A stretch of 22,892 bases of DNA, taken from Bdellovibrionia bacterium. Lineage in GTDB: Bacteria; Bdellovibrionota; UBA1018. The stretch spans positions 1 to 22,892 of the forward strand of contig JBJMMA010000245.1 in assembly GCA_045805065.1 (NCBI GenBank), written 5' to 3'. The position numbers and the translations under genes were made by a program. Shown one piece after another: positions 6,881 to 22,892 of this stretch. Under the pieces are notes generated by a model that worked only from the letters and a program-made list of their open reading frames with translations, did no database searches and was not told the DNA's origin. Every line of letters starts with the position of its first letter. The first letter of the stretch is position 1.

Positions 6881-7927
6881 TCAGATCATGTCCGGCTTTT
6901 GCTTTTTGAGCTGCTCAACGATGAGCTTGATGTCCTGAGCGCGGCTCTTATCGGCAACCAGGATAGCGTTGCCATGATGAACGATGATCAAGTCTTTCAC
7001 GCCGAGAAGCGATACGACTTTCCCTGGAGCATCGACAATATTGCCCGTAGCGTCGATTGCGATCGCCTCGCCGCCGCTCACTACGCCCGCATCATGTCTC
7101 GTTTGAAGAACATCCGCCAAGCCTTCCAGCGAAGTCCAGCTGCCCAGATCATCCCAGCCGCAATCGAGCGGAAATGAGACGACGTTCTTTGCTTTTTCCA
7201 TGATGCCGTAGTCGATCGAAGTCGCCGTCATCTTGGGATAAGCGTTATCTACTTTTCCACCACAGGATTCCCAGGCGGCCTTCATCTCAGGCATGAGCTC
7301 ATCAAACGCGCGCAGAATCACTTCAGCGCGCCAGACGAACATTCCGCCGTTCCAAAGGTAGTTGCCTGAGGCCAGAAACTCTTTGGCGCGCTCAAAGTTC
7401 GGCTTCTCAACAAAGGCATCCACCTTTGCAGGAGTCGCCTTGGAGCCGATCTTCAAATAGCCGTATCCCGTTTCAGGACGATCGGGCTGGATTCCCAGGG
7501 TGACCAGATCATCATGCGTGAGCGCCCAATCACAAGCCGCACGAACGGTTGCGATGAACTGATCGGGACGCGCAATGTAGTGATCGGATGGCATCACGAG
7601 CATCAAGGCGCGAGGATTTTTTTCCGCGATCGCGCGTGCCGCCCAATAAATACAAGGAGCGGTATTGCGGCCTTGGGGCTCAGCAAGAACTTGCGCACTG
7701 GGTGCTTCGCGATTCACAGCGTCTTCAAGCGCTTTTGTCGTCACGATCATTTTATGATCAGCAGAGACGATCGGATCAAAGCGCTTCAAAGTCTGCTGAA
7801 GAAGGGTGTCTCCCCCATCCTCTTTGCCAAACGAGAGAAGCTGCTTAGGTTTGCGCGAAGTGCTTTTTGGCCAGAAGCGTGTGCCGCTTCCGCCTGCCAT
7901 TACAACGAGATGAATCTCGGTTTTCAT
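6881..7927 (-). CDS. manC: Mannose-1-phosphate guanylyltransferase (ManC-type, GMP domain only)
   Basis: VVMAGGSGTRFWPKS, PKQLL, EPQGRNTAPCI, PSDHYI, PETGYGYL, FVEKP, WNGGMF, SIDYGIMEK, GWDDLGSW. No C-terminal cupin. The alternative start is ATG 7969, which overlaps the upstream stop as TAATG. Confidence 0.93.
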   Translation of the reverse strand: MKTEIHLVVMAGGSGTRFWPKSTSRKPKQLLSFGKEDGGDTLLQQTLKRFDPIVSADHKMIVTTKALEDAVNREAPSAQVLAEPQGRNTAPCIYWAARAIAEKNPRALMLVMPSDHYIARPDQFIATVRAACDWALTHDDLVTLGIQPDRPETGYGYLKIGSKATPAKVDAFVEKPNFERAKEFLASGNYLWNGGMFVWRAEVILRAFDELMPEMKAAWESCGGKVDNAYPKMTATSIDYGIMEKAKNVVSFPLDCGWDDLGSWTSLEGLADVLQTRHDAGVVSGGEAIAIDATGNIVDAPGKVVSLLGVKDLIIVHHGNAILVADKSRAQDIKLIVEQLKKQKPDMI

Positions 7928-7939
7928 AGTAATTAAATT

Positions 7940-7970
7940 TCTCGGGCCGGCTCCGCCCGCCCTGGTCATT
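7940..7970 (-). repeat. 31-bp GC-rich palindromic (REP-like) element, copy 1
   Basis: The minus strand reads AATGACCAGGGCGGGCGGAGCCGGCCCGAGA, identical at 28 of 31 positions to 10322-10352 (+). Confidence 0.85.
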
Positions 7971-8367
7971 ATGGAGCCGAAGTGCCTTTGCGGCCGTAAC
8001 CATCTTCAATGCGGACCACATCGTTGAGGTGCGGAGTCGAGACTTCGAAAATATCGACGTCTTCGGTCGCGATCACGCGATGCTTGCGGCCGGTTGGAAT
8101 GTGGTGAGCTTCACCTTGAGAAACTGGAACGTGAATCATCGCACCGTCATCTGCCTCGAACACGAGAGTCATCTTGCCTGAGGCCACGAACATCGTTTCT
8201 TCCTTGATGTTGTGGTACTGAAGTGAAAGCTGATGGCCTTTGTTCACGTGAATGATCTTACCGACGTAGTCCTTGGTCTCAGCCCAGATGAGCTCGTAGC
8301 CCCAAGGCTTCTCAACGCGACGAATGTTCGTCTTTGTGGAATTTGGCATCGTTCCTAAATTCGACAT
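7969..8367 (-). CDS. Cupin domain protein resembling the mannose-6-phosphate isomerase (type II) domain
   Basis: RRVEKPWGYE, QLSLQYHNIKEETMFVASG, HIPTGRKHRV, EVSTPHLNDVVRIED; directly upstream of the guanylyltransferase. Confidence 0.85.
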   Translation of the reverse strand: MSNLGTMPNSTKTNIRRVEKPWGYELIWAETKDYVGKIIHVNKGHQLSLQYHNIKEETMFVASGKMTLVFEADDGAMIHVPVSQGEAHHIPTGRKHRVIATEDVDIFEVSTPHLNDVVRIEDGYGRKGTSAP

Positions 8368-9189: not shown

Positions 9190-9218
9190 AGTGTAGCGAT
9201 CCTGTCGGTTCATGTCAA
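9190..9218 (-). promoter_or_regulatory. Sigma70-type promoter of the SPOR gene (leaderless geometry)
   Basis: The minus strand reads TTGACA-17 nt-TACACT, then only 7 nt (TAAAAAA) before ATG 9182; no Shine-Dalgarno. Confidence 0.75.
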
Positions 9219-9307
9219 ACAGGGCGACCTGTCGCATTGCGTTGCAGGCCGTCACCTCCAATGTAAGACTTGCTTTCGCTCTCATCCAAATGACAGAAAT
9301 AAGTACA

Positions 9308-10174
9308 ATGGCGAAACGGAGCACATTCTGGCGGAATTTTTCCTGCCTTTCTCTGAGCACTTTTCTCGCTCTAGGAACGAGTTCCTGCAGCAGTCTTTTT
9401 TATTTCCCATCGCACACTCTTTATTACTCCCCTAAGCGTCTGGGTTATGAAGCCAAGCAGGTGTCCTTCCACGCTCAGGACGGAACAACTCTTTATGCCT
9501 GGCTCTTCAAACCCCCCGAGGGCAGCACCCCGCCACGCGGAACGATCATTCAATTTCACGGCAATGCTGAGAACATGAGCAGTCATTACCTGTCTTTGGC
9601 CTGGCTGGTGGAACAAGGCTATCAGCTTGTCGCGTTTGATTATCGCGGCTACGGAAAATCCGAAGGCGATCCCTCACAAAAAGGAACTTATCTCGATGCG
9701 CTCGCCGCATTGGATCTTGCCTGGAAGTTTCATCAGGAGAATCATGCCCAGCATTTCATCGTCTTTGGCCAAAGCTTAGGCGGCGCGATTGCCACACGCG
9801 CGCTTCAGGATTTTCCGCAGAAAGACAAAGTGGATCTCCTCGTGCTTGATTCGACTTTCACTTCATACAAGAGCGTTGCTCGAAGAAAGCTTGCCTCGTT
9901 CTGGCTGACGTGGCCAATCAGCCCTCTTGGAGGACTTTTAGTTTCTGATTCCTACAATGCAGAAGACGCCTTGAAGGATAATAAAAGCCCAGTTCTGATC
10001 ATTCATGATCGAAGCGATCCTGTGATGCCTTTCTCGTGCGGTGAGGACTCTTACCGGCTTGCAACCGCGAAAAAAGAATTCTGGCAACTCGACCAGGGCG
10101 ACCACATCGCTGCCTTCAATAACCCCCAATCACCGTATCGAAAACGCTTGGTCGAGTTTCTCGATCGTCTGTAA
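9308..10174 (+). CDS. Alpha/beta hydrolase, probable lipoprotein
   Basis: FHGNAENM, FDYRGYGKSEG, nucleophile elbow GQSLGG, IHDRSDPVM (Asp) and GDHI (His). A lipobox-like LGTSSC follows a hydrophobic stretch. Start chosen at MAKRST within ORF 9212..10174. Confidence 0.88.
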   Translation: MAKRSTFWRNFSCLSLSTFLALGTSSCSSLFYFPSHTLYYSPKRLGYEAKQVSFHAQDGTTLYAWLFKPPEGSTPPRGTIIQFHGNAENMSSHYLSLAWLVEQGYQLVAFDYRGYGKSEGDPSQKGTYLDALAALDLAWKFHQENHAQHFIVFGQSLGGAIATRALQDFPQKDKVDLLVLDSTFTSYKSVARRKLASFWLTWPISPLGGLLVSDSYNAEDALKDNKSPVLIIHDRSDPVMPFSCGEDSYRLATAKKEFWQLDQGDHIAAFNNPQSPYRKRLVEFLDRL

Positions 10175-10321: not shown

Positions 10322-10352
10322 AATGACCAGGGCCGGCGTAGCCGGTCCGAGA
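10322..10352 (+). repeat. 31-bp GC-rich palindromic (REP-like) element, copy 2
   Basis: AATGACCAGGGCCGGCGTAGCCGGTCCGAGA; stem GGGCCGGC/GCCGGTCC (one G-U pair), loop GTA. Confidence 0.85.
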
Positions 10353-10367
10353 TCATATGGAGTGCTC

Positions 10368-12077
10368 ATGGGACCTGTGCTGCACAAAATGCTGACTGAC
10401 TTTGAGACTTGTGATTTCACGATCGGCGATCTGCTCGACGAAATCGCATCAGTCCGTCGTGACGACAGCGTCCTCATCGGTTTTGAAACCGAGGGCACTG
10501 GCAAGACTCGGAGGGAAGTCCGTAGATCGATGACCTACGGAGAGCTGGTCCACGCATCCAAGCTTCTTGCAACCCGACTCATGACCTCAGGAGTTCGTCC
10601 TGGCGATCGCGTTGCGTTGATTCGCCATTCCGGTCCTGACTGGCTCATCTGCTTTTTTGCGATCCTTTTATGTCGTGCCGTGGCGCTACCCGTGGATACC
10701 AAACTCGGCACGCGCGAGATTCTCGACATCTTCAAGAACGCTGAGCCCAAGGCGATGATCACGTCCTCGCATTTCAAAGACTTGCTGGATCAAACCGCAC
10801 GCGTCGCCCCAGAAATCATCCCGATCGTTCTTTCCCTGGCTGACCTGCGAGGGCAGCGAGACAAGGCTCAGAACGCTCCTCTTTCGCAAGAGATTCGCAG
10901 CTCACTTCACTTACAGGGACTGCATTTTCGCGATCTTGCCGTGATCGTTTATACATCCGGAAGCACGAGCAGCCCGAAAGGCGTCATGGCTCGTCTGAGC
11001 AACTTGATGTTTGAAGTGCATGCAATGCTCAATACCCAGCCCATCGACCGGCACACCAAAACCTTGTCCATTCTGCCGCCCAATCACTTCTTTGAGCTAT
11101 GCTGCGGACTTCTCACTCCGTTTTTTGCCGGCGGACAAATCGTGTTCAGCAAAAGTCTTTTGCCTGAAGACATCATCGATCAGATCTGCACTGAACAAGT
11201 GACGGATATTGTCTGCGTGCCGCTCTTCCTCCGGATGTTGAGAAAGGGCTTGCTGACAAAGATTGCTCGCTGCCGCTTGACCTCCGCATGGTTCTGGACA
11301 ACCTTCGCTCTTGCGCGACGGATTCCGTCCAGAGAAGCGCGAAGACTCCTTTTTGCTCCGATTCATCGGCAACTTGGAAATTCGCTTAAGCGATTCTACT
11401 GCGGTGGCGCCCCACTGGAGAAGGAAGTCGCCTGGTTTTTTGAGACCCTTGGAATTTCTCCGCTCGCTGGATATGGCCTGACTGAGACAAGCCCTGTCGT
11501 TTCGATCAATTCGGAAAAGAAAAACCGCATTGGATCCGTCGGACGGGCACTCCCGGGCGTCGAGGTAAAGACCGACTCCAAGGGTGAGCTTCTGGTTCGC
11601 GGTCCAAACGTCATGATGGGCTACCTGAACGCGCCCGAGCTGACTGCATCGGTGATCGATGCCAATGGGTGGTTCCGCACCGGTGATCTTGGGTTCATTG
11701 ATGAGGAAGGATTTATTCACATCACGGGACGATGCAAGGAGCTGATCGTTCTTGGGAACGGCAAGAAAGTCTTCCCAAACGAAGTCGAGGAAATGCTTGC
11801 TCCTCTGATCGAGCGCAAAACTGTCAAAGAGCTCTGCGTGGTGGGAGCCAGGGGCGAAGCTACTCAAGAAGAAGTCTGCGTCGTTGTCGTGGATCCACAG
11901 CTCGACGAAGACGGCCTTCGCCGTGAGATATTCTCGGCGTGTCAATCGTACGCGGTCTATAAACGCCCTACCCGCATCCTCGTCAAAAAAGACGGTCTAC
12001 CGGTTACGACGACCATGAAAGTCAATCGGGCTCGACTGAAAAACTGGATCGAAGGAAGAATGGAGATTGTATCATGA
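10368..12077 (+). CDS. Long-chain fatty acid--CoA/ACP ligase (AMP-binding, FadD-like)
   Basis: Adenylation motifs YTSGSTSSPKGVM, GYGLTETSP, GELLVRGPNVMMGY, GWFRTGDLG, ITGRCKELIV and a terminal Lys in PVTTTMKV. GGAG RBS before ATG 10368; the in-frame ATG 10323 lies inside the repeat. Confidence 0.92.
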   Translation: MGPVLHKMLTDFETCDFTIGDLLDEIASVRRDDSVLIGFETEGTGKTRREVRRSMTYGELVHASKLLATRLMTSGVRPGDRVALIRHSGPDWLICFFAILLCRAVALPVDTKLGTREILDIFKNAEPKAMITSSHFKDLLDQTARVAPEIIPIVLSLADLRGQRDKAQNAPLSQEIRSSLHLQGLHFRDLAVIVYTSGSTSSPKGVMARLSNLMFEVHAMLNTQPIDRHTKTLSILPPNHFFELCCGLLTPFFAGGQIVFSKSLLPEDIIDQICTEQVTDIVCVPLFLRMLRKGLLTKIARCRLTSAWFWTTFALARRIPSREARRLLFAPIHRQLGNSLKRFYCGGAPLEKEVAWFFETLGISPLAGYGLTETSPVVSINSEKKNRIGSVGRALPGVEVKTDSKGELLVRGPNVMMGYLNAPELTASVIDANGWFRTGDLGFIDEEGFIHITGRCKELIVLGNGKKVFPNEVEEMLAPLIERKTVKELCVVGARGEATQEEVCVVVVDPQLDEDGLRREIFSACQSYAVYKRPTRILVKKDGLPVTTTMKVNRARLKNWIEGRMEIVS

Positions 12078-12622
12078 TCAATGGTGTATCGAGTGTCATT
12101 TTGCTCAATTTCATTTACATCGGCTTGCTGCCAAAAATCTTTTTCAAGAAGGACGGCAAGTACAACCTTCACTGGTGGATCACGGCTGGACCGCTTTTCA
12201 TCTCGCCGATCGTGCTTTTGCTCATGAATCTGGGAATCCTGAGCCCGATGAGCGCGCCGATTGAGCAACCTGCCGCTGTTTTGAGCACGATCTCGATCGG
12301 ATTGATCTCATTCACCTTGGGAACCCATCGCGTTCCACTGGCTTTGTGGCATCAAACGAACGATGCACCCCAATCCATCGTGACCTGGGGCGCCTATAAG
12401 CGAATCCGCCATCCTTTCTATACTTCTTTTATCCTCTCGCAGTTTGCTGCCGCGATGGCCGCGCCGCACATCATCACCTTGCTGGCCCTTGCGTATGCGA
12501 TCTCCATCCTCACCTACACGGCCAAGAAAGAAGAAACCAAGCTCAGCGCCTCACAGTATGGCGAAGAATATAAACGCTACATGAAAGCGACGGGAAGATT
12601 CGTTCCCAAGGTTTCAGCTTAA
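12074..12622 (+). CDS. Isoprenylcysteine carboxyl methyltransferase (ICMT/PEMT)-family membrane methyltransferase
   Basis: IVTWGAYKRIRHPFY and EETKL...YGEEYKRYMKATGRFVP motifs; several TM helices; ATGA overlap with the ligase. Confidence 0.88.
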   Translation: MINGVSSVILLNFIYIGLLPKIFFKKDGKYNLHWWITAGPLFISPIVLLLMNLGILSPMSAPIEQPAAVLSTISIGLISFTLGTHRVPLALWHQTNDAPQSIVTWGAYKRIRHPFYTSFILSQFAAAMAAPHIITLLALAYAISILTYTAKKEETKLSASQYGEEYKRYMKATGRFVPKVSA

Positions 12623-12632
12623 GGAGCTCGAC

Positions 12633-13583
12633 ATGAAGCCAGTATTTGTCAGCCATCTCGCTTACGCGCTCGGAGAACAGGTTTTCTCAGTCGAGCAATC
12701 GGCTGAGGCCAAGCGGATCTTTTCCGGACCCCAGCAATTCCGCGATGCGGGATTCTCCGAGCATCGAGTCTGCGCGCCGGGCACTTCTCCCTATGCGCTC
12801 ACTCATCAAGCCGTCTCGCAGCTTGGCGAATCGATTCAAGGCACTGGCGCAATCATTTATGCCACCTGCCTTCCGCTGAATGGCAACATCGGAGATCCCT
12901 CGAAGTTCACCGAGACTCGCGATGTGAAACATCTGATGGATTTTCCTGCAAGCCATCTGCAGGCTGACTTCGGACTGGATAACGCAAGCGTCATCGGACT
13001 CAACCAGCAAGCCTGCACCAGCATGCTAGGCTCCATGAGACTTGCCCGTGCTTTGATTCAGACCGAGCCGGATCTCAAGAAGGTTCTATGCGTCACCTCC
13101 GATCGCTTTCCGGAAGGCGCAACCTATGAGCAAGCCTACAACGTCATCTCGGATGGCGCTGCAGCCTGCCTGGTCTCCGATGAGCCTCATGGCTATCGTA
13201 TCATGTGCACGCACGCGATCACCAACGGAGCCCTGGCTCAAGCAAGCGATGATGAGACGGTCGGAAGCTACTTCAATTACACTTACCGACTGATGGAAGA
13301 GACTCTGGCCAAAGCATCCCTGAAGATGAGCGACATCAACTGGGTCATCCCCCAGAACACGAACGTCAATGCCTGGATGATTCTCTCGCGTCTCCTGGGA
13401 ATTGACTTTGAGCGCGTTTATTTCGGTAGCATCTCTGAAGTCGCGCACATCATCAGCTCGGACAATGTCGTGAATCTCAAAAAGCTTGAGTCGACGGGTA
13501 ACCTTCGCTCAGGAGATCGCCTGCTCTTGTTCATGGCAGGATTTGGCTTGAACTGGCAGGCCGTCATTCTGCAGAAGGTCTAA
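12633..13583 (+). CDS. KAS III/FabH-fold condensing or acyl-transfer enzyme with non-canonical active site
   Basis: NQQACTS (catalytic Cys), ISDGAAACLV, DINWVIPQNTN, VAHIISSD, GDRLLLFMAGFGLNW; AAGGAG RBS. Confidence 0.88.
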   Translation: MKPVFVSHLAYALGEQVFSVEQSAEAKRIFSGPQQFRDAGFSEHRVCAPGTSPYALTHQAVSQLGESIQGTGAIIYATCLPLNGNIGDPSKFTETRDVKHLMDFPASHLQADFGLDNASVIGLNQQACTSMLGSMRLARALIQTEPDLKKVLCVTSDRFPEGATYEQAYNVISDGAAACLVSDEPHGYRIMCTHAITNGALAQASDDETVGSYFNYTYRLMEETLAKASLKMSDINWVIPQNTNVNAWMILSRLLGIDFERVYFGSISEVAHIISSDNVVNLKKLESTGNLRSGDRLLLFMAGFGLNWQAVILQKV

Positions 13584-13587
13584 TACT

Positions 13588-14454
13588 ATGCAAGAAAAAG
13601 AATCTGTCGCTTTAGCGCAAAAGCTGTCTGAGATCTCCGTCAAGAGCTTCTATAGCCCTTACGAGAATCTCGCTTTCCCAGAAACGATGGACAAGGTTCA
13701 ATGGTTCACCAGCCCTGAGCTGATTTCCATCTATGGAACCCAAGCCTACGAAGGGCTTTCCGAGGAAAAGAAAAAGCTTCTCAGCTTTTATGAAGCGGTC
13801 AATTTCTATAGCTTGAATATCCATGGCGAGAAAGCCTTGATGGAAGGGCTTGCGCGCAGGCTGCATGATCAGGAGCACGATGCCCACACGCGCTATATTC
13901 ATCACTTTCTTGATGAAGAGAACAAACACATGGTTTACTTCGGGACTTTCTGCACGCGCTATGCGGGCAAAGTCTACGCTGACCGAAAGTTCCAGTTTCC
14001 ACGCGAGTACGCAACCGGTGAGGAAGAGCTTCTGTTTTTTCTCAAGGTCATGATCTTCGAGGAGATCGTGGACTATTACAACAAGTCCATGTCCACGGAT
14101 CAGCGTTTGAACGAGGTCGCCCGCAAGATCAATCTCTTTCACCACAAGGACGAGATCCGCCATCTCATTTACGGGCGTCAACGGGTCAAGGAGCTCTTCC
14201 AGGAGCATTCTCCAAAATGGCCGCAGAAAACGTTGGATGATCTTCGCACTTATGTTCAGAGCTATTTCGTCACGACCTGGCGCGAATATTACAATCCTGA
14301 CATCTATAAGGATGTCGGCATTGAGAACGCCTACGAGCTTGCGGACGAAGTCTTTCACTCCGAAACGGCAAAGCTTCATCGTGAACGCGTCTCCAAGCAT
14401 TGCGTGGATTACCTGATGGAGTGCGGAATCCTTATCGAAAGGCCAAACCTATGA
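13588..14454 (+). CDS. AurF/CmlI-like non-heme diiron oxygenase
   Basis: Ferritin-like ligand pattern GE ... DEENKH ... FEEIVD ... HHKDEIRH. The HxxDExxH motif includes the extra His of arylamine N-oxygenases. The N-terminal WFTSPELISIYGT segment is typical of the family. Confidence 0.85.
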   Translation: MQEKESVALAQKLSEISVKSFYSPYENLAFPETMDKVQWFTSPELISIYGTQAYEGLSEEKKKLLSFYEAVNFYSLNIHGEKALMEGLARRLHDQEHDAHTRYIHHFLDEENKHMVYFGTFCTRYAGKVYADRKFQFPREYATGEEELLFFLKVMIFEEIVDYYNKSMSTDQRLNEVARKINLFHHKDEIRHLIYGRQRVKELFQEHSPKWPQKTLDDLRTYVQSYFVTTWREYYNPDIYKDVGIENAYELADEVFHSETAKLHRERVSKHCVDYLMECGILIERPNL

Positions 14455-14696
14455 AAACCGAATCAGAAATCAAAACTGAAATCCGTGAGTGGGTTCTTAA
14501 AACCAATAAGAAGATCACCGCCGCCGAACTCACCGATGACATGCACCTGATTGAGAAGCGAATCATCAGCTCGCTTCACATCATGGAGCTCATTCTGCTC
14601 ATTGAGAAGATCAAGGCTTCACGGTTTGACTTGAAAGCCATCAAGCCGGGCGCTTTCAACAGCATCGATTCCATCTATAAGAGCTTTTTCCTATGA
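14451..14696 (+). CDS. Carrier protein 1 (probable aminoacyl carrier)
   Basis: 81 aa from ATG 14451 (ATGA overlap). LIEKRIISSLHIMELILLIE carries the likely phosphopantetheine Ser; the C-terminus is PGAFNSIDSI. It is translationally coupled to the aa:CP ligase. Confidence 0.75.
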   Translation: MKTESEIKTEIREWVLKTNKKITAAELTDDMHLIEKRIISSLHIMELILLIEKIKASRFDLKAIKPGAFNSIDSIYKSFFL

Positions 14697-15580
14697 ACCT
14701 CAAGAAGCTTCCAGACCTGAGTGCGCTTTCCGGATATCGATGGACCGAGAACGGTCAATCCACGATGTCTGGCGGAGTTTTTCAACTCTATAGCGCTTTG
14801 GATAAAATGTTCCAGAGCTGGGCAATGCGCGTCCAGGCACAAGAGCATCACTTTCCAATCTTCATTCAGGCCAAGGAGCTCAATAAGCTCGATTACTTCA
14901 AGTCATTCCCGCATCTGATCAGCTTCCCGGTATTCCTGGAACCATCGGAAGAAAACCTGAGAAAGTTCGTCGAAGGCCAGCGGATTGACGAGCAGGGACG
15001 ACTCTGCCTGACTGAAACCGCGCCAATCCACGACTGCCTCACGCCAGCGGCTTGCTATCATTTCTATGTGACCTATCAGGGTCAGACCTTCAATGAGCCC
15101 CGTTATCTCACAACTCGCGCCAATTGCTTCCGACGAGAAACCCACTACGTCCCGCTCAGACGTCAATGGAACTTCGGAATGCGCGAAATCGTCTGCATCG
15201 GAACAGCGGATGAAGTCAAAGCTTTCATCCAAAGCTACCGGGACTGGCTCACGGAGATGTTCACTCAGCTGAAACTTCCGATTCAGTGGGAAGTGGCAAC
15301 GGATCCATTCTTTGATCCCACCCGCAATCCAAAGCATCTCATGCAACAGCTTGAACCGGTGAAGCATGAAATGATTTACGAGGGCGAGCTCTCGATCGGA
15401 TCAACCAATTATCATCGCAATTACTTTGGCGACGCTTTCAATATCTTGCGCGATGGCGAATCCGCCTTCTCAGGCTGCGTGGCATTTGGACTTGAGCGCT
15501 GGGTGTTTGCGATTTTGAACGAGTACGGGGCTGATGAGAAAAACTGGCCAGCCGAGCTCAGGAGCGTGATTCATGAGTAA
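14693..15580 (+). CDS. Amino acid:[carrier protein] ligase (class II aaRS/SerRS catalytic-domain homolog)
   Basis: YFKSFPHL, LTPAACYH, motif 2 CFRRE...FGMREIVCIG, DPFF, STNYHRNYFG and motif 3 SGCVAFGLERW. Only 295 aa with no tRNA-binding domain, and adjacent to a carrier protein. Confidence 0.9.
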   Translation: MNLKKLPDLSALSGYRWTENGQSTMSGGVFQLYSALDKMFQSWAMRVQAQEHHFPIFIQAKELNKLDYFKSFPHLISFPVFLEPSEENLRKFVEGQRIDEQGRLCLTETAPIHDCLTPAACYHFYVTYQGQTFNEPRYLTTRANCFRRETHYVPLRRQWNFGMREIVCIGTADEVKAFIQSYRDWLTEMFTQLKLPIQWEVATDPFFDPTRNPKHLMQQLEPVKHEMIYEGELSIGSTNYHRNYFGDAFNILRDGESAFSGCVAFGLERWVFAILNEYGADEKNWPAELRSVIHE

Positions 15581-16691
15581 GCGCGTTTTGATTTCAGGCG
15601 GCGGCGGATATCTTGGATTCCGCACGGCTCTTAAATATCTTCAAGACTCCGACGCACGCGTGGTCCTTACGGTTCACGCCAAGGATCAAGACGAGCTTGC
15701 GCACAAGTCCGAGCCACTTCTTCAGGCTGCCGGTCAGTATGCAGACCGGGTGGAGCCCGTGAGATTTGAGCTCGAGGAAGAAGAGCCACTTCGTGAGCTT
15801 GACCCATCCAGCATTGACGAAATCATCCATAGCGCAGCGGTGACGCGCTTTAATGTCGAAGCGGATGTCGCCCAAACCGTCAATATCAACGGCACTGAGA
15901 AAGTCATGAAGTTTGCTTCTCAATGCCCGAGACTTCAGTCGTTCGGGCTCTTAAGCAGCATTTACGCCTCAGGGCTCCGTAAAGGAGAAATCCTTGAGAC
16001 CAGGCTGAATGATAGTGAAGGCTTTGCCAATCACTATGAGCTCTCCAAATGGTCGGGCGAAGAGCTCCTCTTCAAAAAATACGAAAGCCTTCCCTGGAAG
16101 GTTTTTCGCATCGCCACCGTTCTTGCGGACCGGGACGATGGTCTGACCATCCAGCAAAACGCCGTGCACAACACGCTCAAGCTCTTCTACTATGGATTGA
16201 TCTCTCTGATCCCTGGATCGCCAGAGACCCCAGTCTACCTGGTCAATGGTGACTTTGTTGCGCAATCCGTGTTTGAGGGAATGCAAAGCTTCCCACAAAA
16301 GCAGATCTATCACGTTTGCCATGCGCGGGAGCACTCCATCCAGCTTGGGGAGCTCATTGATCTCGCGTACGAGACTTATTTGAAGGATCCTGCCTTTAAG
16401 AGTCGCCGCCTTTTGAAGCCCTTGTTCGCGGATGCGCAATCTTTCCATGCGCTCGTGAAAGGCGCGACGGAGTTTGGCGGAAATGTCCTTTCGCAGGCCG
16501 TCTCAAGCATTGCCCCTTTCGGGGTTCAGCTTTTCATCACGAAAGACGTGAAAAACAACGAACTCGTCTCGCGCCTGTCACATTATGCTCCGCCCAACCC
16601 TCAAGAACATGCAAGAAACACCTGCCAGTTTCTGGTAGAGTCCAAGTTCAAAAAACTTTCTTTAACCGACATTGTCGGAGGTGCTCAATGA
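15573..16691 (+). CDS. Extended SDR, thioester-reductase/fatty acyl reductase-like (NAD_binding_4 type)
   Basis: VLISGGGGYLG Rossmann motif, IIHSAAVTRF, NINGT, catalytic YELSK, FRIATV. Confidence 0.85.
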   Translation: MSKRVLISGGGGYLGFRTALKYLQDSDARVVLTVHAKDQDELAHKSEPLLQAAGQYADRVEPVRFELEEEEPLRELDPSSIDEIIHSAAVTRFNVEADVAQTVNINGTEKVMKFASQCPRLQSFGLLSSIYASGLRKGEILETRLNDSEGFANHYELSKWSGEELLFKKYESLPWKVFRIATVLADRDDGLTIQQNAVHNTLKLFYYGLISLIPGSPETPVYLVNGDFVAQSVFEGMQSFPQKQIYHVCHAREHSIQLGELIDLAYETYLKDPAFKSRRLLKPLFADAQSFHALVKGATEFGGNVLSQAVSSIAPFGVQLFITKDVKNNELVSRLSHYAPPNPQEHARNTCQFLVESKFKKLSLTDIVGGAQ

Positions 16692-17311
16692 GCGATCAGA
16701 CCATCCAACCCATCACCGAAAACGAGCGCTGGCTTCTGAGCTTTTACAGAACCTCAGAAATCAGCGGAGCGCTCTTCTTTGGCCGTCTGGCCAAGTCGCT
16801 TAAACCCGGCGCAATCCAGCATGACATGACCAAGCACTTTGCCGACGAAAGCCAGCACTCCTGGTACTGGACCGAGTGTCTGCAGACCCTTGGCTTTGAA
16901 CCCATCAAGCTCGACAACGCTTATCAGGACCAGTATGTCGCCGCTGGCGGGATGCCCGTCAACATCATGGAGATTCTGGCCATTACCCAGGTTTTTGAAA
17001 AACGTACCATCGGCCAATACGCGCTCCACCTCAATGCCCCAGGCACTCATCCTGTGATCAAGCAGACATTGAAGAAGATCATGGAAGACGAGAAATGGCA
17101 TATCCAATGGGTGGACAAGGCTCTTGAGTCACTGAGTGCTGAGTACGGCGCGGATCACATCAAGAAGACGCTTGAGCACTACCGCGCTGCTGACCAATCC
17201 GTTTATGAGAACAGCGTCAAGGAGCATCGCGAGCGAATCGAAGGTCTTTTTACGTACCGCCTGAAAAATGAAGAGAAATCTGACGAGATGAGCGAAGAGG
17301 AGAAAGTATGA
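16688..17311 (+). CDS. Ferritin-like diiron protein (second, 2-His/4-carboxylate pattern)
   Basis: RTSE ... ADESQH ... VFEKR ... EDEKWH give an E / DExxH / E / DExxH pattern; ATGA overlaps at both ends. Confidence 0.8.
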   Translation: MSDQTIQPITENERWLLSFYRTSEISGALFFGRLAKSLKPGAIQHDMTKHFADESQHSWYWTECLQTLGFEPIKLDNAYQDQYVAAGGMPVNIMEILAITQVFEKRTIGQYALHLNAPGTHPVIKQTLKKIMEDEKWHIQWVDKALESLSAEYGADHIKKTLEHYRAADQSVYENSVKEHRERIEGLFTYRLKNEEKSDEMSEEEKV

Positions 17312-17553
17312 GCTTCAACCGAAATGACGCTAAGGCGAAGATTGTGGAGTTTTTAAAGATCCCTGCGGCTCGCGTACAAGAGGACTCCCCTTTAGTTGAT
17401 CTCGTTGCTGAGTCCTTCATGCTCATCGAAATGGTGATTGAGCTTCAGGAAGCGTTCTCCCTGCGACTGAACCGTGAGGAGCTTGAAGAAATCAAAACCG
17501 TCGGACAGCTTTTAGATCTTCTCCAGGAGAAGAGCGCCGCAGCCGTTGGGTAA
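17308..17553 (+). CDS. Carrier protein 2 (acidic acyl carrier protein)
   Basis: 81 aa, acidic. DLVAESFMLIEMVIELQEAF..L..EELEEIKTVGQLLDLL aligns by eye with the ACP pattern DLGxDSL..E....E..F. Confidence 0.88.
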   Translation: MSFNRNDAKAKIVEFLKIPAARVQEDSPLVDLVAESFMLIEMVIELQEAFSLRLNREELEEIKTVGQLLDLLQEKSAAAVG

Positions 17554-17558
17554 ATTCG

Positions 17559-18254
17559 ATGACAACTCAACCTTCGAAAGACAGCATCGTACAGGTCAAA
17601 GACGTTCATCGGCGCTACCAGCTTGGCGCTACGACAGTGCACGCGCTCCGAGGAGCGAGCCTTGAGCTCAAGCGCGGTGACTTTACGGCTTTGATTGGAG
17701 CATCGGGCTCGGGAAAAAGCACGCTTTTGAACCTGATTGGATGCATCGATCATCCGGATCAGGGAAAGATCATCATCGATCAGGAAGACGTGGTCTCGCT
17801 CTCAGAGTCCGCTCAGGGAAATCTTAGAAACCGGAAGATCGGATTCATCTTTCAATCCTTCAACCTCGTTCCTGTTCTGAATGTCTTTGAGAATGTCGAG
17901 CTGCCTCTTTTGATTCAGCCCGAACTCTCTGAGTCAGAACGAAAAGAACGAGTCATGAACGCGATTCGAGACGTGGGCCTTGAAAGCTTTGCAAAGCAGA
18001 TTCCTGACCGGCTCTCAGGCGGTCAGCGCCAGCGCGTTGCAATCGCACGTGCGCTGGTTGTGAACCCGAAGCTTGTCTTGGCAGATGAGCCCACGGCCAA
18101 TCTTGATTCAGAGACTGCGCACAAGATCATCGATCTTCTGCTTGAGCTCAACACCAAGCGCCAGGTCACGTTTCTTTTCTCCACTCACGATGAGAAGCTC
18201 ATCGGACGCGTCAATCGTATCGTGAGAATCCAAGACGGTGTGATTGTCGAATGA
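17559..18254 (+). CDS. ABC transporter ATP-binding protein (LolD/MacB-type)
   Basis: Walker A GASGSGKST, IGFIFQSFNL, signature LSGGQRQRVAIARAL, Walker B LADEPTANLD, STHD. Confidence 0.96.
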   Translation: MTTQPSKDSIVQVKDVHRRYQLGATTVHALRGASLELKRGDFTALIGASGSGKSTLLNLIGCIDHPDQGKIIIDQEDVVSLSESAQGNLRNRKIGFIFQSFNLVPVLNVFENVELPLLIQPELSESERKERVMNAIRDVGLESFAKQIPDRLSGGQRQRVAIARALVVNPKLVLADEPTANLDSETAHKIIDLLLELNTKRQVTFLFSTHDEKLIGRVNRIVRIQDGVIVE

Positions 18255-19621
18255 GCTTCTCATCTTCTTCCAAAATATCTTTGAATCACTCTTGGAAACT
18301 CTCCTGGAGAAATCTCGGCAGGAATCGCAGGCGAAACCTGGCGACAGGAGCTGCCATTGCCTTTGGTTACGCTGGCCTCCTGCTCTTGGGAGGCTACATT
18401 GTCCGCGTGGAGCATTACCTGCGCGTGAACTCCGTCTATTTGAACCACTCAGGCCATGTTTCGATCTATCGCAAGGACGGACTGGAGCGGCACCTCACCA
18501 AGCCCTCTCGCTACAATCTCAAGCCTGAAGAACAGGCACGTATCCTCGAGCTCGTCTCCAAAGACTCTGAAATCGAATTTATCGGAAAATATCTGAAGGG
18601 CGCTGGCCTTGCCGGCAATGGATGCAAATCCTATCCATTTCTTGCCACCGGTATTGATACGAGCGTTGAGAAAACCATCCATGAGCATCCTGAAGTGATC
18701 GAATGGGTGCCGGAACTCAACGTCTCTCCCGAATTGCAATCTGACTCCGTAGCTCTGACTTCAGGCCTGGCAAGACTTCTTGGAAAGCCGCGGGTCCACT
18801 CTGAAGTCCCGCAGGAGTCGCGCTCCGTTGCTCAGACTCAGAATTGTTCAAGCCCTGATGTGTCCAAAGACCTCGCAAAAGATGCGAACATCCAATTGGC
18901 GGGACGCACAGTTCATGGAGACTTCTCCGCGGTCGATGCCGAGATCACAAGCCATTATTCGACTGGGCTTGCGCTGACCGAGGATAGCGGTCTTGTCGCC
19001 CCCCTTTCCATGCTTCAAAAGCTTTATGACACGGACTCGGTGACCTATATCGCGCTCTATTTGAAGCCAAACGTCTGGGTTCAATCCTATCTGAACCGTT
19101 TGAACGAACGACTTGCATCCACAGGACTTGAGTTATCGGTCTATGCTTACGATAGCGAGGACATCAGTCCTTTCTATGTCGGGGTCGTTAACTTTCTTCT
19201 CGTGATGGCAGGATTTTTCGTGTTCCTCGTCTTTGGAGTGGTGGCGCTTTCCATCATCAACTCACTTGCCATGAGTATTATCGAGCGGACTCGCGAGATC
19301 GGGACATTGCGCTCTCTGGGTTACTCCCGAGAGTCGATCGCAGGACTCTTTGCACGCGAAACCTTGATTCTTTCAGGAATCAGCCTGGCTTCAGGCTGGG
19401 CGCTTGCTCAGGCGATCTCCTGGGGAGTCAATTCGCTCAACATCCGCTTTGAGCCGCCCGGAATCGCAGACACCATGCAGTTCATGCTCAAGCCAAGCGC
19501 ACCTCTTTGCGCAGGGCTGGCTTTTGTGATTTTAATTCTGTCTTATTTGACCGCACGCCAAACAGCGATGATCCGAACCAAGCAAAGAGTCGCTGAACTC
19601 CTGACGAGCGGAACAGGCTGA
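18251..19621 (+). CDS. ABC transporter permease (LolC/E-, FtsX-like) 1
   Basis: LSWRNLGRNRRR N-terminus, one TM, a large periplasmic domain, then ERTREIGTLRSLGYSR and C-terminal TMs. Confidence 0.92.
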   Translation: MSFSSSSKISLNHSWKLSWRNLGRNRRRNLATGAAIAFGYAGLLLLGGYIVRVEHYLRVNSVYLNHSGHVSIYRKDGLERHLTKPSRYNLKPEEQARILELVSKDSEIEFIGKYLKGAGLAGNGCKSYPFLATGIDTSVEKTIHEHPEVIEWVPELNVSPELQSDSVALTSGLARLLGKPRVHSEVPQESRSVAQTQNCSSPDVSKDLAKDANIQLAGRTVHGDFSAVDAEITSHYSTGLALTEDSGLVAPLSMLQKLYDTDSVTYIALYLKPNVWVQSYLNRLNERLASTGLELSVYAYDSEDISPFYVGVVNFLLVMAGFFVFLVFGVVALSIINSLAMSIIERTREIGTLRSLGYSRESIAGLFARETLILSGISLASGWALAQAISWGVNSLNIRFEPPGIADTMQFMLKPSAPLCAGLAFVILILSYLTARQTAMIRTKQRVAELLTSGTG

Positions 19622-19638: not shown

Positions 19639-20379
19639 ATGAACAACAAATCAAAACTTGCGGCACTTGTCTTGAGTTTGAGTTCCCTTGCGCACGCGGC
19701 AACCCCGAGCGCCACAGATCTTTTAAAAAGCGCGGATCGCGCTCGTGGCGGATTGGTGAATGGCCTGGAGTGGACCGTAAACATCGAAAGTGTTGAGGAT
19801 GGTGACAAATCCAATCGCACCTTTCAGGTTCGCGCGCTTGATATCAACGCTCTTGTTCAGGCCGTAGCTCCAGCAAGAAATAAAGGCGAAGTCTTCCTCT
19901 TTAATGATCATGACCTTTGGTTTGCCAGGCCGGGCCTGAAGAAACCGGTCGCGATTTCCGCGCGTCAGCGCCTCACCGGTCAGGCTGCGAACGGGGATAT
20001 CGCCTCAACCCACTATTCAAGAGATTATAGCGCCACCGTCGAGAGCAAGGGCGCAGTCAATGGTGAACCTGTCACGATTCTCAAGCTCAAGGCGAAAGAT
20101 CCTAAAGTCACCTATGACCAGATTCGCTACTTTGTGAGCGACAAGCGAGGACTGGCCCTTAAAGCTGAGTTCATGACGCTTCAAGGTGAAGTCATGAAAA
20201 CGGCTACCTTCGAGTATGGGAATCAGATCGCCTCTGGCTCAGAGCATTTCCCATTTGTGAGCAAAATGACGATTCGCGATGCCAAGATCCCAGAAAATGT
20301 GAGTGTGATTCAATACACGGATCCCCAAGTCAAAGCGACGTCGCCATCTCTTTTCAACGTGAACAACTTAACCAGGTAA
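19639..20379 (+). CDS. Outer-membrane lipoprotein-sorting (LolA-like) periplasmic protein
   Basis: Signal peptide ending LAHA, LLKSADRAR, ISARQRLTGQAANGDIA, TYDQIRYFV..LALKAEF; located between two LolC/E-like permeases. Confidence 0.85.
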   Translation: MNNKSKLAALVLSLSSLAHAATPSATDLLKSADRARGGLVNGLEWTVNIESVEDGDKSNRTFQVRALDINALVQAVAPARNKGEVFLFNDHDLWFARPGLKKPVAISARQRLTGQAANGDIASTHYSRDYSATVESKGAVNGEPVTILKLKAKDPKVTYDQIRYFVSDKRGLALKAEFMTLQGEVMKTATFEYGNQIASGSEHFPFVSKMTIRDAKIPENVSVIQYTDPQVKATSPSLFNVNNLTR

Positions 20380-20385
20380 TATCCC

Positions 20386-21717
20386 ATGCTGTCTTTCTTT
20401 AGAATTGCTTGGAGAAACGCGACCCTGAATTGGCGCCATAGCCTGATGGCGATCATTTCGGTCGCGGCTGGCTTTGTGTCTCTGAGCATTTTTCAGAACT
20501 ACATGCTGGACGTGAAACACATGTACGTGAAGACGTACGAACAGCGTTTCATGTACGGACAGCTGATAGTCGAGAAGAAAGGCGCGCAGCAAAACCGCGG
20601 TATAGATTCGCCAGCGCCCGAGCTCAATGAACTCGACGTGCGGGAGCAGGCCTGGATTGCGAACTATCTAAGCTCTCATCCCAGTGAGGTGCAGAAATCC
20701 GTACGCTTTCTCAAAGTCTTTGGCATGATCGGTAACGGATCCGCTAACACGATTTTCTCTGGCTATGGCTACGATATTCAAAACGGTGCCGAGCTCAGAA
20801 AGCCGAACTGGGAATGGAACACTCTTGCCGGAAAGCCGTTGCAACTTTCCCCTCAACCCAACGGCATTGTTCTCGGGGTAAGCCTTGCTTCGATCTTGGG
20901 TTGTGAACCTGAGCAGAAGTCTCACTACCTCAATGGCCAGGGAGGCTATGAGGCGATCGAGCGGCCTTTCAAATGCCGGCAGACCGGCGATTTTCAACTC
21001 AATGTCGCGACCGAATCGGGTCAGGCTAACGCTCTCACGGGTTCGTTGGTGGGAATCATCGATGCGGCCTACAAAGATCTCGACACAAAGTTTGTCGCCA
21101 TGCCGTTAGAAATGGCTCAAACCCTGATGGCGACCCAGAAACTGAGCTACATCTCCGTTCAGCTCTCCGATTCAACCGATGCTTTGTCCTTTGCTAATAA
21201 AATGAGAGCAGATGCCTCTGGGGCTGGAATCCAACTCGATGTCACCCGTTGGCAGGATCATCCGGACGGCGATCTCTATGTGCGCACGATGAGCCTTCTG
21301 ACGATTTTCAGAAACTTCGTCGTTGCTGTCATCCTGGTCATCGCAGGCCTTTCTGTTCTCAGCACGATGATCAAGATCGTGACCGAGCGCACACGCGAGA
21401 TCGGCACACTGAGAAGCATGGGTTACTCTCGCCACCAAGTTCTGGCCTTGTTCGCCTTGGAAGTCTTCCTGCTTTCTGTCATTGGAATCGCAACAGGACT
21501 TCTGACAGCGCTCGCGTCATCCTGGGCGATTAACCTCATTGGCCTTACCTACAAGGCCGGCATGCTCACAGAGCCTGTACCGTTTCGTGTGGCTTTCTCG
21601 GCGCCCATTTACATCTCAAGTGCGGTTTTTCTGGTTGTGATCGCAACCCTTGCGGCCGTCGTCCCGGCGTATCAAGCGACAGGACGAAGAGTTTCGGAAT
21701 TGCTCACCCATGTTTAA
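20386..21717 (+). CDS. ABC transporter permease (LolC/E-, FtsX-like) 2
   Basis: IAWRNATLNWRHS and ERTREIGTLRSMGYSR; same topology as permease 1. Confidence 0.92.
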   Translation: MLSFFRIAWRNATLNWRHSLMAIISVAAGFVSLSIFQNYMLDVKHMYVKTYEQRFMYGQLIVEKKGAQQNRGIDSPAPELNELDVREQAWIANYLSSHPSEVQKSVRFLKVFGMIGNGSANTIFSGYGYDIQNGAELRKPNWEWNTLAGKPLQLSPQPNGIVLGVSLASILGCEPEQKSHYLNGQGGYEAIERPFKCRQTGDFQLNVATESGQANALTGSLVGIIDAAYKDLDTKFVAMPLEMAQTLMATQKLSYISVQLSDSTDALSFANKMRADASGAGIQLDVTRWQDHPDGDLYVRTMSLLTIFRNFVVAVILVIAGLSVLSTMIKIVTERTREIGTLRSMGYSRHQVLALFALEVFLLSVIGIATGLLTALASSWAINLIGLTYKAGMLTEPVPFRVAFSAPIYISSAVFLVVIATLAAVVPAYQATGRRVSELLTHV

Positions 21718-22892
21718 AGCGCCAACTCTTCCGCAGACTCTATTTTGCTTCTTGCTCTCGCTCGCAGCACTGAGTGCGGAAGCTCAGGCTGGCGAAGACT
21801 CTTCATTGAATTCTTCTTGGAAACTCGATGCGTCTTACGAAGGATATGGATCCGTTGTGGGATCGAGCATCAATTCATCGAGCGCAAATCCTGGGAACGG
21901 CGTTCTTCAAATTCCACAAAGCCAGGCAAGCGTGGATTCGCGTCCCTCTTTTACGCTTCAAAACCAGGACTCGATCAAACTGATCTTGCAGCCCCGTTGG
22001 CAGCTGGGTCCGAGCCTTACCACTTATAATGACCGCCCAGATGAGCGACACTTCCACAGTGAGCTGAGCCTGACCCAAGGATACGCGGCGGTCCAGCTCA
22101 GTGAGCAGTGGCTTTTTGCCGCTGGCGTGCAGAATTATCAGTGGGGCCCCGCTGAGCTCCTAACAGCGAGCAATCCGATGTCTCACTTTTCTGCGGGGCA
22201 AAGAAGTATTCTCTGGGTCGAAAAAGGTCATGGACTTGTCAGGCTCAATTTTTCGAGCGGGCAGAATATCTCAGCGGTTGTGATCGGCGATCTCTTTGAT
22301 AACAACCTCACGCCCGCCAACTCGGGCGGAACTTTCTCGCGCCTGGGTCTTGCCAAAGTCGAGTACCAGGTCTCGCCTGCTTCTTATGCGGGTTTGAGCG
22401 CTGGCTCAGGTGAGCACACCCAAACCTGGGTGGGAGAATATGGAAGCTTAGGCATCATTGACGGCCTTTCCATCTACGGCGACGCAAGACAGACGATCGG
22501 TAGCAACGCAGTCTATCTTGTCCCACGTGAGCGCTCGCTGGAGACGCTTGCGGACCTTGGAATCCGATTTGAAGACCGGGTCGATGCTCGCAGTGAAGTG
22601 ATCATCAATACCTATGGCTATGATCGACGTGAGTTCCAGCAACTCCTCTCTATTGCCAGCCAGTCGGGTCTTCTCTCCCAAGGATCTTCCCTTCCAGGTC
22701 TTGAGTTCCCCGGTAAAACTTATCTTTATGAGTCGGTCCGCTTGCCAGAAGTCGGCTATCAAAAGAGAATGACCCTGAACTTGCGCTACATTCATTCCCT
22801 GATGGATCAGTCGGGCGTGGTTTTCTTTAACGGCGATCAAGCACTCACCGATCATTTGAATGCGGTTTTTGAAATCAGTGTCAGCCGTGGAG
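21710..22892 (+). CDS. Probable outer-membrane beta-barrel protein, runs off the window
   Basis: Absent from the ORF track. Manual translation from ATG 21710 (8-nt overlap with permease 2) is open to the end: MFKAPTLPQTLFCFLLSLAALSAEAQAGEDSSLNSSWKLDASYEGYG...LTQGYAAVQLSEQWLFAAGVQNYQWGPAELLTASNPM... It shows a signal peptide, amphipathic beta-strands and a G.Q...WG.....P segment seen in porin-like barrels. Confidence 0.8.
   Translation, partial: MFKAPTLPQTLFCFLLSLAALSAEAQAGEDSSLNSSWKLDASYEGYGSVVGSSINSSSANPGNGVLQIPQSQASVDSRPSFTLQNQDSIKLILQPRWQLGPSLTTYNDRPDERHFHSELSLTQGYAAVQLSEQWLFAAGVQNYQWGPAELLTASNPMSHFSAGQRSILWVEKGHGLVRLNFSSGQNISAVVIGDLFDNNLTPANSGGTFSRLGLAKVEYQVSPASYAGLSAGSGEHTQTWVGEYGSLGIIDGLSIYGDARQTIGSNAVYLVPRERSLETLADLGIRFEDRVDARSEVIINTYGYDRREFQQLLSIASQSGLLSQGSSLPGLEFPGKTYLYESVRLPEVGYQKRMTLNLRYIHSLMDQSGVVFFNGDQALTDHLNAVFEISVSRG

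Follow-up and report, generated by a model that had tools for sequence, protein, structure and literature searches.

The window analyzed here is the whole contig JBJMMA010000245.1 (22,892 nucleotides) of a Bdellovibrionia bacterium (phylum Bdellovibrionota; genome of 4.2 Mb, 94% complete), and the subject of this study is a pair of genes at 14451..15580, predicted to encode a stand-alone amino acid:[carrier protein] ligase and its small carrier, together with the operon that surrounds the pair. A total of 14 plus-strand genes are arranged in series from position 10323 to the window end, with overlaps or very short gaps between them. The first nine, all on the plus strand, are those for an acyl-AMP/acyl-carrier ligase of the AMP-binding family (FAAL; 10323..12077; Pfam AMP-binding, E 2.8e-67), an ICMT/PEMT-like integral-membrane methyltransferase (12074..12622; NCBIfam NF040696, E 1.2e-17, below cut-off; Pfam ICMT, E 6.4e-5), a KASIII-like thiolase-fold enzyme with a Cys plus His site (12633..13583; Pfam ACP_syn_III_C, E 6.1e-14), an AurF-like ferritin-type diiron oxygenase (13588..14454; Pfam AurF, E 1.1e-33, 117 bits, over cut-off and full length), CP1, an 81-aa aminoacyl carrier protein resembling type II peptidyl carrier proteins (PCP) (ATG 14451 to stop 14696), the ligase of 295 aa (ATG 14693 to stop 15580), a stand-alone thioester reductase (TR) of the NAD_binding_4/R-domain type (15573..16691; Pfam NAD_binding_4, E 2.1e-28), Ferr, a ferritin-like six-ligand diiron protein with a fold like that of aldehyde-deformylating oxygenase (ADO) (16688..17311; assigned from invariant ligands and a model), and ACP2, an acyl carrier protein (ACP) (17308..17553; Pfam PP-binding, E 5.5e-10). 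The CP1 gene, translationally coupled to that of the ligase, is joined by ATGA overlaps to the AurF-like gene on one side (14451-14454) and to the ligase gene on the other (14693-14696), and the 3' end of the ligase gene shares 8 nt with the TR gene. Since a scan for promoters and terminators stayed at the chance level (7 found against 7.7 expected; 19 against 15.8), the operon limits were set by the overlaps and short gaps only. In the following, L-numbers are locus labels and P-numbers are database protein labels.

By sequence as well as by fold, the ligase is closest to Bll0957, a glycine:[carrier protein] ligase of solved structure. Bll0957 gave the best sequence match in PDB (3mey; E 1.9e-31 over query residues 51-293), and the AlphaFold model of the ligase (predicted local distance difference test, pLDDT, 89.5) was aligned with Bll0957 (4h2w_B) at Z 29.4 and a root-mean-square deviation (rmsd) of 2.5 Å, with 285/296 residues aligned. 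The seryl-tRNA synthetases (SerRS) of Methanosarcina and Methanopyrus gave Z of about 25-26, only their catalytic part (chain residues of about 179-494) being matched, and other class II synthetases gave Z of about 22. Since the whole length of the protein is covered by the Bll0957 fold while SerRS is matched only over the catalytic part, the ligase lacks a tRNA-binding arm. Pfam tRNA-synt_2b matched the ligase at E 1.2e-5 (25.9 bits, under the cut-off of 29.3). Relatives of the ligase are commonly labeled 'seryl-tRNA synthetase' in databases, and methanogen-type SerRS models of NCBIfam match the ligase at E 1.1e-16 and 7e-11, as might be expected of a spare or degenerate SerRS that serves in translation. 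Such a role is, however, extremely improbable for a protein that consists of the catalytic core only and invariably occurs with a carrier, to which it is fused in one case, in a genome that encodes a full bacterial SerRS elsewhere (540 bits, over cut-off).

In the alignment of the subfamily, R147/E149 (CFRRE) and E268/R269 (GLERW), which we take to be the ATP residues of class II motif 2 and motif 3, were invariant in all 26 members. The same was true of C121 (PAAC), E165 (MRE) and C262 (GCVAFG), the three motifs being aligned with those of Bll0957. These three positions are presumably equivalent to the zinc ligands of Bll0957 in the amino-acid pocket, reportedly Cys131/Glu176/Cys279 (Mocibob et al. 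2010). Sequence and model altogether support the assignment of the 295-aa protein as a stand-alone amino acid:[carrier protein] ligase with a cognate carrier, and by analogy glycine is most likely the amino acid loaded.

The carrier itself was recognized from its orthologues. As a single sequence CP1 showed no Pfam match and was weakly ACP-like (E 0.13); a profile of 44 CP1 orthologues matched PltL (E 2.1e-9) and PigG (E 1.6e-5), which are stand-alone peptidyl carrier proteins, and S41 of CP1 (RIISSLH), invariant in 44/44, is aligned on the phosphopantetheine serine of both. A metagenome scan with the ligase alignment detected 187 stretches encoding relatives, and all counts of metagenome loci given below refer to the best 80 of these 187. 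A CP1 homologue is located directly upstream of the ligase in 68 of the 69 loci with at least 300 bp of upstream sequence, a pairing that is far beyond chance. The pairing is also supported by a single natural fusion, P0117 (384 aa), in which a CP1-like domain is followed by an acidic linker of about 20 residues and the ligase; it forms a one-member cluster and was found on one 6.2-kb contig. The first-pass annotation, made from the sequence of the window, had described a 295-aa class II aminoacyl-tRNA synthetase (aaRS) core without a tRNA-binding arm, with its zinc ligands kept, coupled to an 81-aa carrier; its coordinates were exact, and fold, alignment and gene pairing agree with this description on each point.

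The gene context of this pair is highly conserved. All nine genes, hereafter the cassette (FAAL, ICMT-like, KASIII-like, AurF-like, CP1, ligase, TR, Ferr, and ACP2), were present in 8/8 loci of Bdellovibrionota relatives and in 14 of the 15 metagenome loci with at least 5.5 kb of upstream and at least 2.6 kb of downstream sequence, the remaining one lacking only the ICMT match. The AurF-like gene was found upstream of CP1 in 46/49 loci with at least 1.2 kb upstream, and TR was located downstream of the ligase in all 43 loci with enough sequence. Under changed gene order three blocks persist, [KASIII-AurF-CP1-ligase-TR], [Ferr-ACP2], and [FAAL(-ICMT)]. Within the phylum the ligase is patchy, being detected in nine of 301 genomes (G000 counted) at E 1e-20 or better; when the genome contigs were scanned with the ligase as a single protein, L001 was the only close relative. 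The nearest relative locus belongs to an 'uncultured Bacteriovoracaceae' assembly, with a ligase of 83% identity. A total of 1782 proteins were related to the ligase at E 1e-5 or better, and the names attached to relatives include Bdellovibrio, Acidobacteria, Blastocatellia, Terriglobia, and Manganitrophaceae. The context of the pair had been considered unusual in the first-pass annotation, but the nine-gene cassette turned out to be the standard context of a separate and widespread ligase subfamily; the accompanying proposal, that the operon supplies the downstream enzymes, was right in that a conserved set of enzymes surrounds the ligase-CP1 pair. No description of the nine-gene cassette was found in the literature searched with terms aimed at it, and among the matches listed by one of these searches (25 of 135) none refers to nitronate monooxygenase.

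The enzyme encoded directly upstream of CP1 carries the ligand pattern of N-oxygenases. In the AurF-like protein E69, E111-x2-H114, E158, and H185-x3-E189-x2-H192 were invariant in 44/44 orthologues. According to a 2025 preprint (PMC12154687), all ferritin-like diiron oxidases share six such residues, and a seventh His is characteristic of N-oxygenases; by this criterion the AurF-like protein keeps the seventh His (H-x3-E-x2-H spacing).

The link between oxygenase and ligase extends to unrelated loci. Used as queries against plasmids, the AurF-like protein and the ligase retrieved identical top records, among which Tistrella pTM2 and two Streptomyces plasmids carry a diiron oxygenase, a small carrier, and a ligase in this order, and an Agrobacterium vitis plasmid carries an oxygenase, a 'nitronate monooxygenase', and a ligase homologue. 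A 'nitronate monooxygenase' gene adjoins in three of these four plasmids, and the Tistrella locus also holds a class I methyltransferase. The canonical operon, as in Phyllobacterium, consists of ACP, acyl-CoA dehydrogenase, ligase, and DUF1839, and this context predominates among the 111 plasmid matches. The window ligase is 40-42% identical to the Tistrella/Streptomyces plasmid ligases versus 31.6% to the canonical Phyllobacterium ligase (NCBI-named).

On the plasmid of Streptomyces sp. NBC_00335 (L019, 1558-13565) the trio of oxygenase, carrier, and ligase adjoins genes for KS/CLF-type ketosynthases and for two each of ACPs, AMP-binding proteins, and phosphopantetheinyl transferases (PPTases), a context that suggests an N-oxidized amino-acid starter for a type II polyketide synthase (PKS)-like pathway. 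L103 (S. clavuligerus plasmid), with a ligase homologue, a carrier, and a PPTase together with a condensation-domain protein and a PhyH dioxygenase, and L104 (Bacillus mycoides plasmid), with an ACP and a ligase homologue together with KASIII-like, acyl-CoA dehydrogenase (ACAD), and BtrH-like genes, were set aside as different systems. The ligase family serves several unrelated pathways.

An N-oxygenase acting on a carrier-bound amino acid has a precedent with carriers of nonribosomal peptide synthetases (NRPS). According to PMC9967187 and PMC12183544, which refer to He and Ryan 2021, carrier-bound glycine is converted to a nitronate by a diiron oxygenase and then O-methylated (enteromycin carboxamide), the alternative outcome being an aldoxime (althiomycin, akazaoxime); N-oxygenation of carrier-bound glycine is also credited to He and Ryan 2021 in PMC12154687. 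The downstream pathways of such ligases had been called poorly defined in the first-pass annotation, which holds for the canonical ligases (2022 review PMC9437257) but is less true of the AurF-linked branch, because these papers cite He and Ryan 2021 for the N-oxygenation of carrier-bound glycine. With fair confidence, the first downstream step is predicted to be the action of the AurF-like enzyme encoded next to CP1, which would N-oxygenate the amino acid on the carrier.

The trio of oxygenase, carrier, and ligase might instead make only nitrite from glycine, the rest of the operon being an unrelated lipid pathway. The title of He and Ryan 2021 reportedly names a 'denitrification' branch, and relatives of the trio are located beside 'nitronate monooxygenase' genes on three plasmids; searches of Pfam and NCBIfam with the 15 operon proteins, however, gave no match to a nitronate monooxygenase family, and the trio is locked with overlapping frames between the KASIII-like and TR genes in 8/8 relatives' loci and 14/15 long metagenome loci, which makes an independent nitrite-forming trio very unlikely.

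Among the remaining cassette enzymes are those predicted to supply and join an acyl group. FAAL, which is syntenic in 8/8 relatives' loci and has as its best NCBIfam match a long-chain fatty-acid ligase model (278.6 bits, below cut-off), is the presumed loader of ACP2, in which the Ser of (E/D)S(F/L) is conserved in 9/9. In the KASIII-like enzyme the Cys is kept (QQAC), while the FabH His is replaced by Gln (PQNTN) and the FabH Asn by His (VAHIISSDN) in 9/9, and the Cys-His-Asn triad of the FabH type is not present. Since both the FabH His and Asn are replaced, the enzyme does not belong to the malonyl-decarboxylating condensing enzymes. Its residue pattern is that of the acyltransferase ChlB3 (7eqi), which likewise has the thiolase fold, the Cys, a His at the FabH Asn position and no His at the FabH His position, although the similarity is weak (E 8.1e-8). 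In TR the motifs GGGGYLG and YxxxK (YELSK) were read in the sequence; the protein matches the thioester-reductase domain model TIGR01746 (E 5e-20, below cut-off), and its nearest PDB entry is an NRPS R domain (6vtj, E 2.3e-9). In the ICMT-like methyltransferase the RHPFY and EE motifs are invariant in 9/9.

The second diiron protein, Ferr, is of a different kind. E24, E54, H57, E104, E135, and H138 are invariant in 32/32, and there is no seventh His (I131). By sequence only designed diiron bundles were found in PDB. For its model (pLDDT 88.7) the top match by VIA-align was 5ux2_B (Z 17.1, rmsd 2.6, 174 aligned), and its closest folds are those of proteins with ADO activity (Z 17.1, 16.3, 15.6, and 15.4; identity of 13-14%); one unknown ferritin-like protein gave Z 16.1 and generic ferritins about 13. 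Ferr is tied to ACP2, because in two natural proteins, P0133 (296 aa) and P0168 (245 aa), a Ferr domain is fused to a PP-binding domain. As shown by the natural fusions, each carrier has a partner of its own, namely the ligase for CP1 and Ferr for ACP2. The Ferr-PP-binding fusions form a 51-member cluster in the protein atlas and are commonest in Gemmatimonadota. P0121 (418 aa), the sole 'longer' Ferr form in the search for fused forms, was left unused; its extra N-terminus was read by eye as PPTase-like or as an over-called frame in GC-rich DNA.

The order of the TR and Ferr genes recalls the cyanobacterial pair of acyl-ACP reductase (AAR) and ADO, in which a reductase gene is likewise followed by that for a small ferritin-like diiron protein; the window TR differs in being of the R-domain/NAD_binding_4 type. 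If TR and Ferr worked as such a pair, a carrier-bound acyl group would be reduced to the aldehyde and then deformylated with loss of the former carboxyl carbon, leading to a hydrocarbon-like or alpha-nitroketone-type lipid. The ADO-active folds at the top of the Ferr list, well above the generic ferritins, the overlap of the Ferr and TR genes, and the usual adjacency of the two are in line with this idea. A shared fold is, however, no proof of function; Foldseek gave no match of the model at E 0.001 or better, and the identity to ADO is as low as stated above. Furthermore, Ferr stays with ACP2 and not with TR in the reordered loci (L042, L016), and it is fused to a carrier domain and not to a reductase, a TR-Ferr fusion having been looked for and not found. 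We therefore consider the AAR/ADO-like pairing decidedly unlikely. A 538-aa open reading frame (ORF) in L096, taken up as a TR-Ferr fusion, was rejected as a long open frame in GC-rich DNA.

The five genes that follow the cassette in the window look like an export module of the Lol type. They encode a LolD-like ABC ATPase (17559..18254; TIGR02211, E 1.7e-70, 237 bits, below cut-off; Pfam ABC_tran, E 3.3e-35), FtsX-type permease 1 (18251..19621; Pfam FtsX, E 9.6e-13), a LolA-like periplasmic lipid/lipoprotein carrier (19639..20379; Pfam LolA_like, E 3.1e-29), FtsX-type permease 2 (20386..21717; Pfam FtsX, E 1.3e-20), and a signal-peptide protein of no known family, without Pfam or NCBIfam match, which runs off the window (21710..22891), all on the plus strand. 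A full Lol-like module directly follows the cassette in four of the eight relatives' loci, and homologues of the last protein, which may be an outer-membrane component, come after FtsX2 in L001, L014, L015, L016, L024, and L045. In three soil loci (L032, L037, and L042) a MacB-type permease and an ABC ATPase follow the cassette in place of the Lol-like genes, and a protein of 750-840 aa with two cNMP-binding domains, an NTE-type P-loop domain, and a patatin phospholipase domain is encoded directly upstream of the cassette (L032:3408-5714, L037:3291-5540, L042:601-3114). These patatin-type proteins may supply fatty acid under cyclic-nucleotide control; patatin phospholipases and MacB exporters both fit an exported lipid product. 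In L042 a PPTase gene (11915-12364) comes after TR.

On the basis of these assignments, a pathway is proposed in which N-oxygenated glycyl-CP1 would be joined to a fatty acyl group from ACP2, released reductively, methylated, and exported as a lipid; we hold this scheme with moderate confidence, its chances being about even. By homology, the ligase would activate a small amino acid, probably glycine, with ATP and transfer it as a thioester to the phosphopantetheine of CP1. The AurF-like enzyme would then oxidize the amino nitrogen on CP1 to a hydroxylamine, an oxime, or a nitro/nitronate group, a step inferred because of the conserved gene coupling, the N-oxygenase ligand signature, and the published precedent. 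In parallel, FAAL would load a fatty acid on ACP2 and Ferr would modify this acyl chain, a pairing backed by the fusions. The KASIII-like enzyme, with its Cys/His site of the acyl-transfer type, would take the acyl group from ACP2 and join it to the glycine-derived unit on CP1; TR would release an aldehyde or alcohol from CP1, the membrane-bound ICMT-like enzyme would methylate this product, and the ABC/FtsX/LolA-like/outer-membrane genes would carry the lipid out of the cytoplasmic membrane.

A more specific and only tentative version concerns the chemistry of the joining step. If a nitroacetyl unit is formed on CP1, the KASIII-like enzyme could acylate this unit at its acidic alpha-carbon without decarboxylation, and on chemical reasoning this acidity would explain the missing FabH residues. 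Reductive release, methylation, and export would then complete a widespread pathway to N-oxygenated lipids, independent of NRPS and of pyridoxal phosphate (PLP) enzymes; as part of the same tentative version, the product might be a nitro, O-methyl-nitronate, or nitroalkene-type lipid, with ADO-like loss of the carboxyl carbon as a possibility.

The same genes could also lead to a lipid of the plain N-acyl type, an amino aldehyde or amino alcohol derivative such as N-acyl-ethanolamine or N-acyl-serinol, if the KASIII-like enzyme N-acylates aminoacyl-CP1, TR releases the product, and both diiron proteins act on the fatty chain by hydroxylation or desaturation. The resemblance of the KASIII-like site to acyl-transfer enzymes such as ChlB3, the position of TR directly after the ligase, and the fusion of Ferr to ACP in some bacteria all agree with such a product, and ferritin-like diiron enzymes are known also for C-H oxygenation and desaturation (PMC12154687). 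Against it, the AurF-like protein keeps the N-oxygenase-typical seventh His in 44/44, and its coupling is to CP1 and the ligase rather than to ACP2, also in unrelated loci without fatty-acid genes (Tistrella); these unrelated loci carry 'nitronate monooxygenase' genes. A plain N-acyl lipid is thus judged rather unlikely.

Several points weigh against the proposed route through N-oxygenated glycyl-CP1. All the cassette steps and the end product are predictions, drawn from sequence and analogy, and glycine in particular was chosen only by analogy, from the preference of Bll0957 (as given in PDB titles) and the cited precedent. The ligase scored 158.2 bits (E 2.4e-46) with NCBIfam NF005479, 'amino acid--[acyl-carrier-protein] ligase', under the equivalog cut-off of 357 bits, and is therefore a member of a separate subfamily and not an equivalog; within a known family, the ligase-CP1 pair represents a new subfamily. 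The predicted complex of the AurF-like protein with CP1 gives weak support only, its score being 0.53 versus 0.18 for the best control. Among 157 solved complexes 116 attained this mark, as did two of 215 mismatched pairs, scores of 0.60 or less comprising only 18 of the 157 solved complexes plus both mismatches that passed, and these counts hold roughly because own alignments were used; the runs agreed in at least 66% of contacts, with partner pLDDT of at least 85. None of the 15 operon proteins matched a nitronate monooxygenase family in Pfam or NCBIfam, and the operon methyltransferase (ICMT-like) belongs to a family different from that of the class I enzyme of the Tistrella locus; for these two reasons any O-methyl-nitronate chemistry is guesswork. 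Acylation by the KASIII-like enzyme could take place on nitrogen, oxygen, or carbon, and its sequence does not favor one over the others. Finally, Ferr could act on the released aldehyde and not on acyl-ACP2, because its closest folds are ADO-like and its gene follows that of TR.

In the upstream flank, the gene for an alpha/beta hydrolase (9212..10174, plus strand; Pfam Hydrolase_4, E 1.1e-19) is a doubtful member of the system: no homologue was found beside the cassette in the eight relatives' loci, although in L085 an alpha/beta hydrolase does come after the cassette. On the minus strand at 6881-8367, two adjacent ORFs share between them the functions of mannose-1-phosphate guanylyltransferase and mannose-6-phosphate isomerase, the cupin (isomerase) part being upstream of the nucleotidyl-transferase part.

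When compared with known systems, the window genes combine features of several. The amino acid:[carrier protein] ligases Bll0957/Atu2573 (reviews PMC9437257 and PMC5370406; structures 3mey, 3mf1, and 4h2s) share with the window ligase the full-length fold, the zinc-ligand and class II ATP motifs, the absence of a tRNA-binding domain, and an adjacent carrier gene. The window ligase differs, however, in being only about 28-31% identical to them and below the equivalog cut-off; its carrier resembles PltL/PigG and not that of Bll0957, against which the CP1 profile gave E 0.65, and its neighbors are AurF-like, KASIII-like, and TR genes whereas those of the canonical ligases are acyl-CoA dehydrogenase and DUF1839. 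PltL and PigG are free-standing carriers on which the bound amino acid, proline, is oxidized after loading by adenylation enzymes of the ANL family. They gave the best CP1 profile matches with the serine in register, but CP1 is paired with an aaRS-like ligase. The glycine nitronate/aldoxime pathways (enteromycin carboxamide, akazaoxime, and althiomycin), as described in the papers that cite He and Ryan 2021, likewise involve a carrier-bound amino acid, an AurF-type oxygenase, and a methyltransferase in the cluster, and relatives of the window trio adjoin nitronate monooxygenase genes. In these clusters, according to PMC9967187, the loader is an NRPS adenylation-PCP (A-PCP) module, in contrast to the aaRS-like ligase and free-standing carrier of the window, where the methyltransferase is membrane ICMT-like and the unit would meet a fatty-acid branch and a reductase, not NRPS/PKS modules.

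In the ham/pvf/mgo pathways an adenylation-thiolation-reductase (A-T-R) NRPS loads an amino acid, which is N-oxygenated and released by the reductase, and fragin gains a fatty acyl group. The cassette would follow the same logic of loading, N-oxygenation, and reductive release, but with free-standing proteins, an aaRS-like loader, and a KASIII-like enzyme in place of the condensation domain. HamC of the ham pathway is an AurF-like N-oxygenase (PMC11705231); HamA/HamE-type or cupin partners were not found in the window cassette.

Knowledge of the amino acid:carrier-protein ligases dates back to 2010, but what the aminoacyl-carrier does biologically was still called unknown in a 2022 review (PMC9437257), and a distinct ligase subfamily locked into a conserved nine-gene cassette offers a lead to the function of this ligase family. 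Because the cassette names the next enzyme, a predicted N-oxygenase, and supplies everything for reconstitution, the fate of aminoacyl-carriers becomes directly testable. The cassette points to an undescribed family of exported, nitrogen-oxidized lipids, which could matter for predator-prey or soil-community chemistry. If the tentative nitroacetyl version is true, predatory Bdellovibrionota and many soil bacteria would export such a lipid to their cell surface; the pathway would then define a new class of bacterial lipid and, for the first time, give the aaRS-like carrier-protein ligases a demonstrated physiological role.

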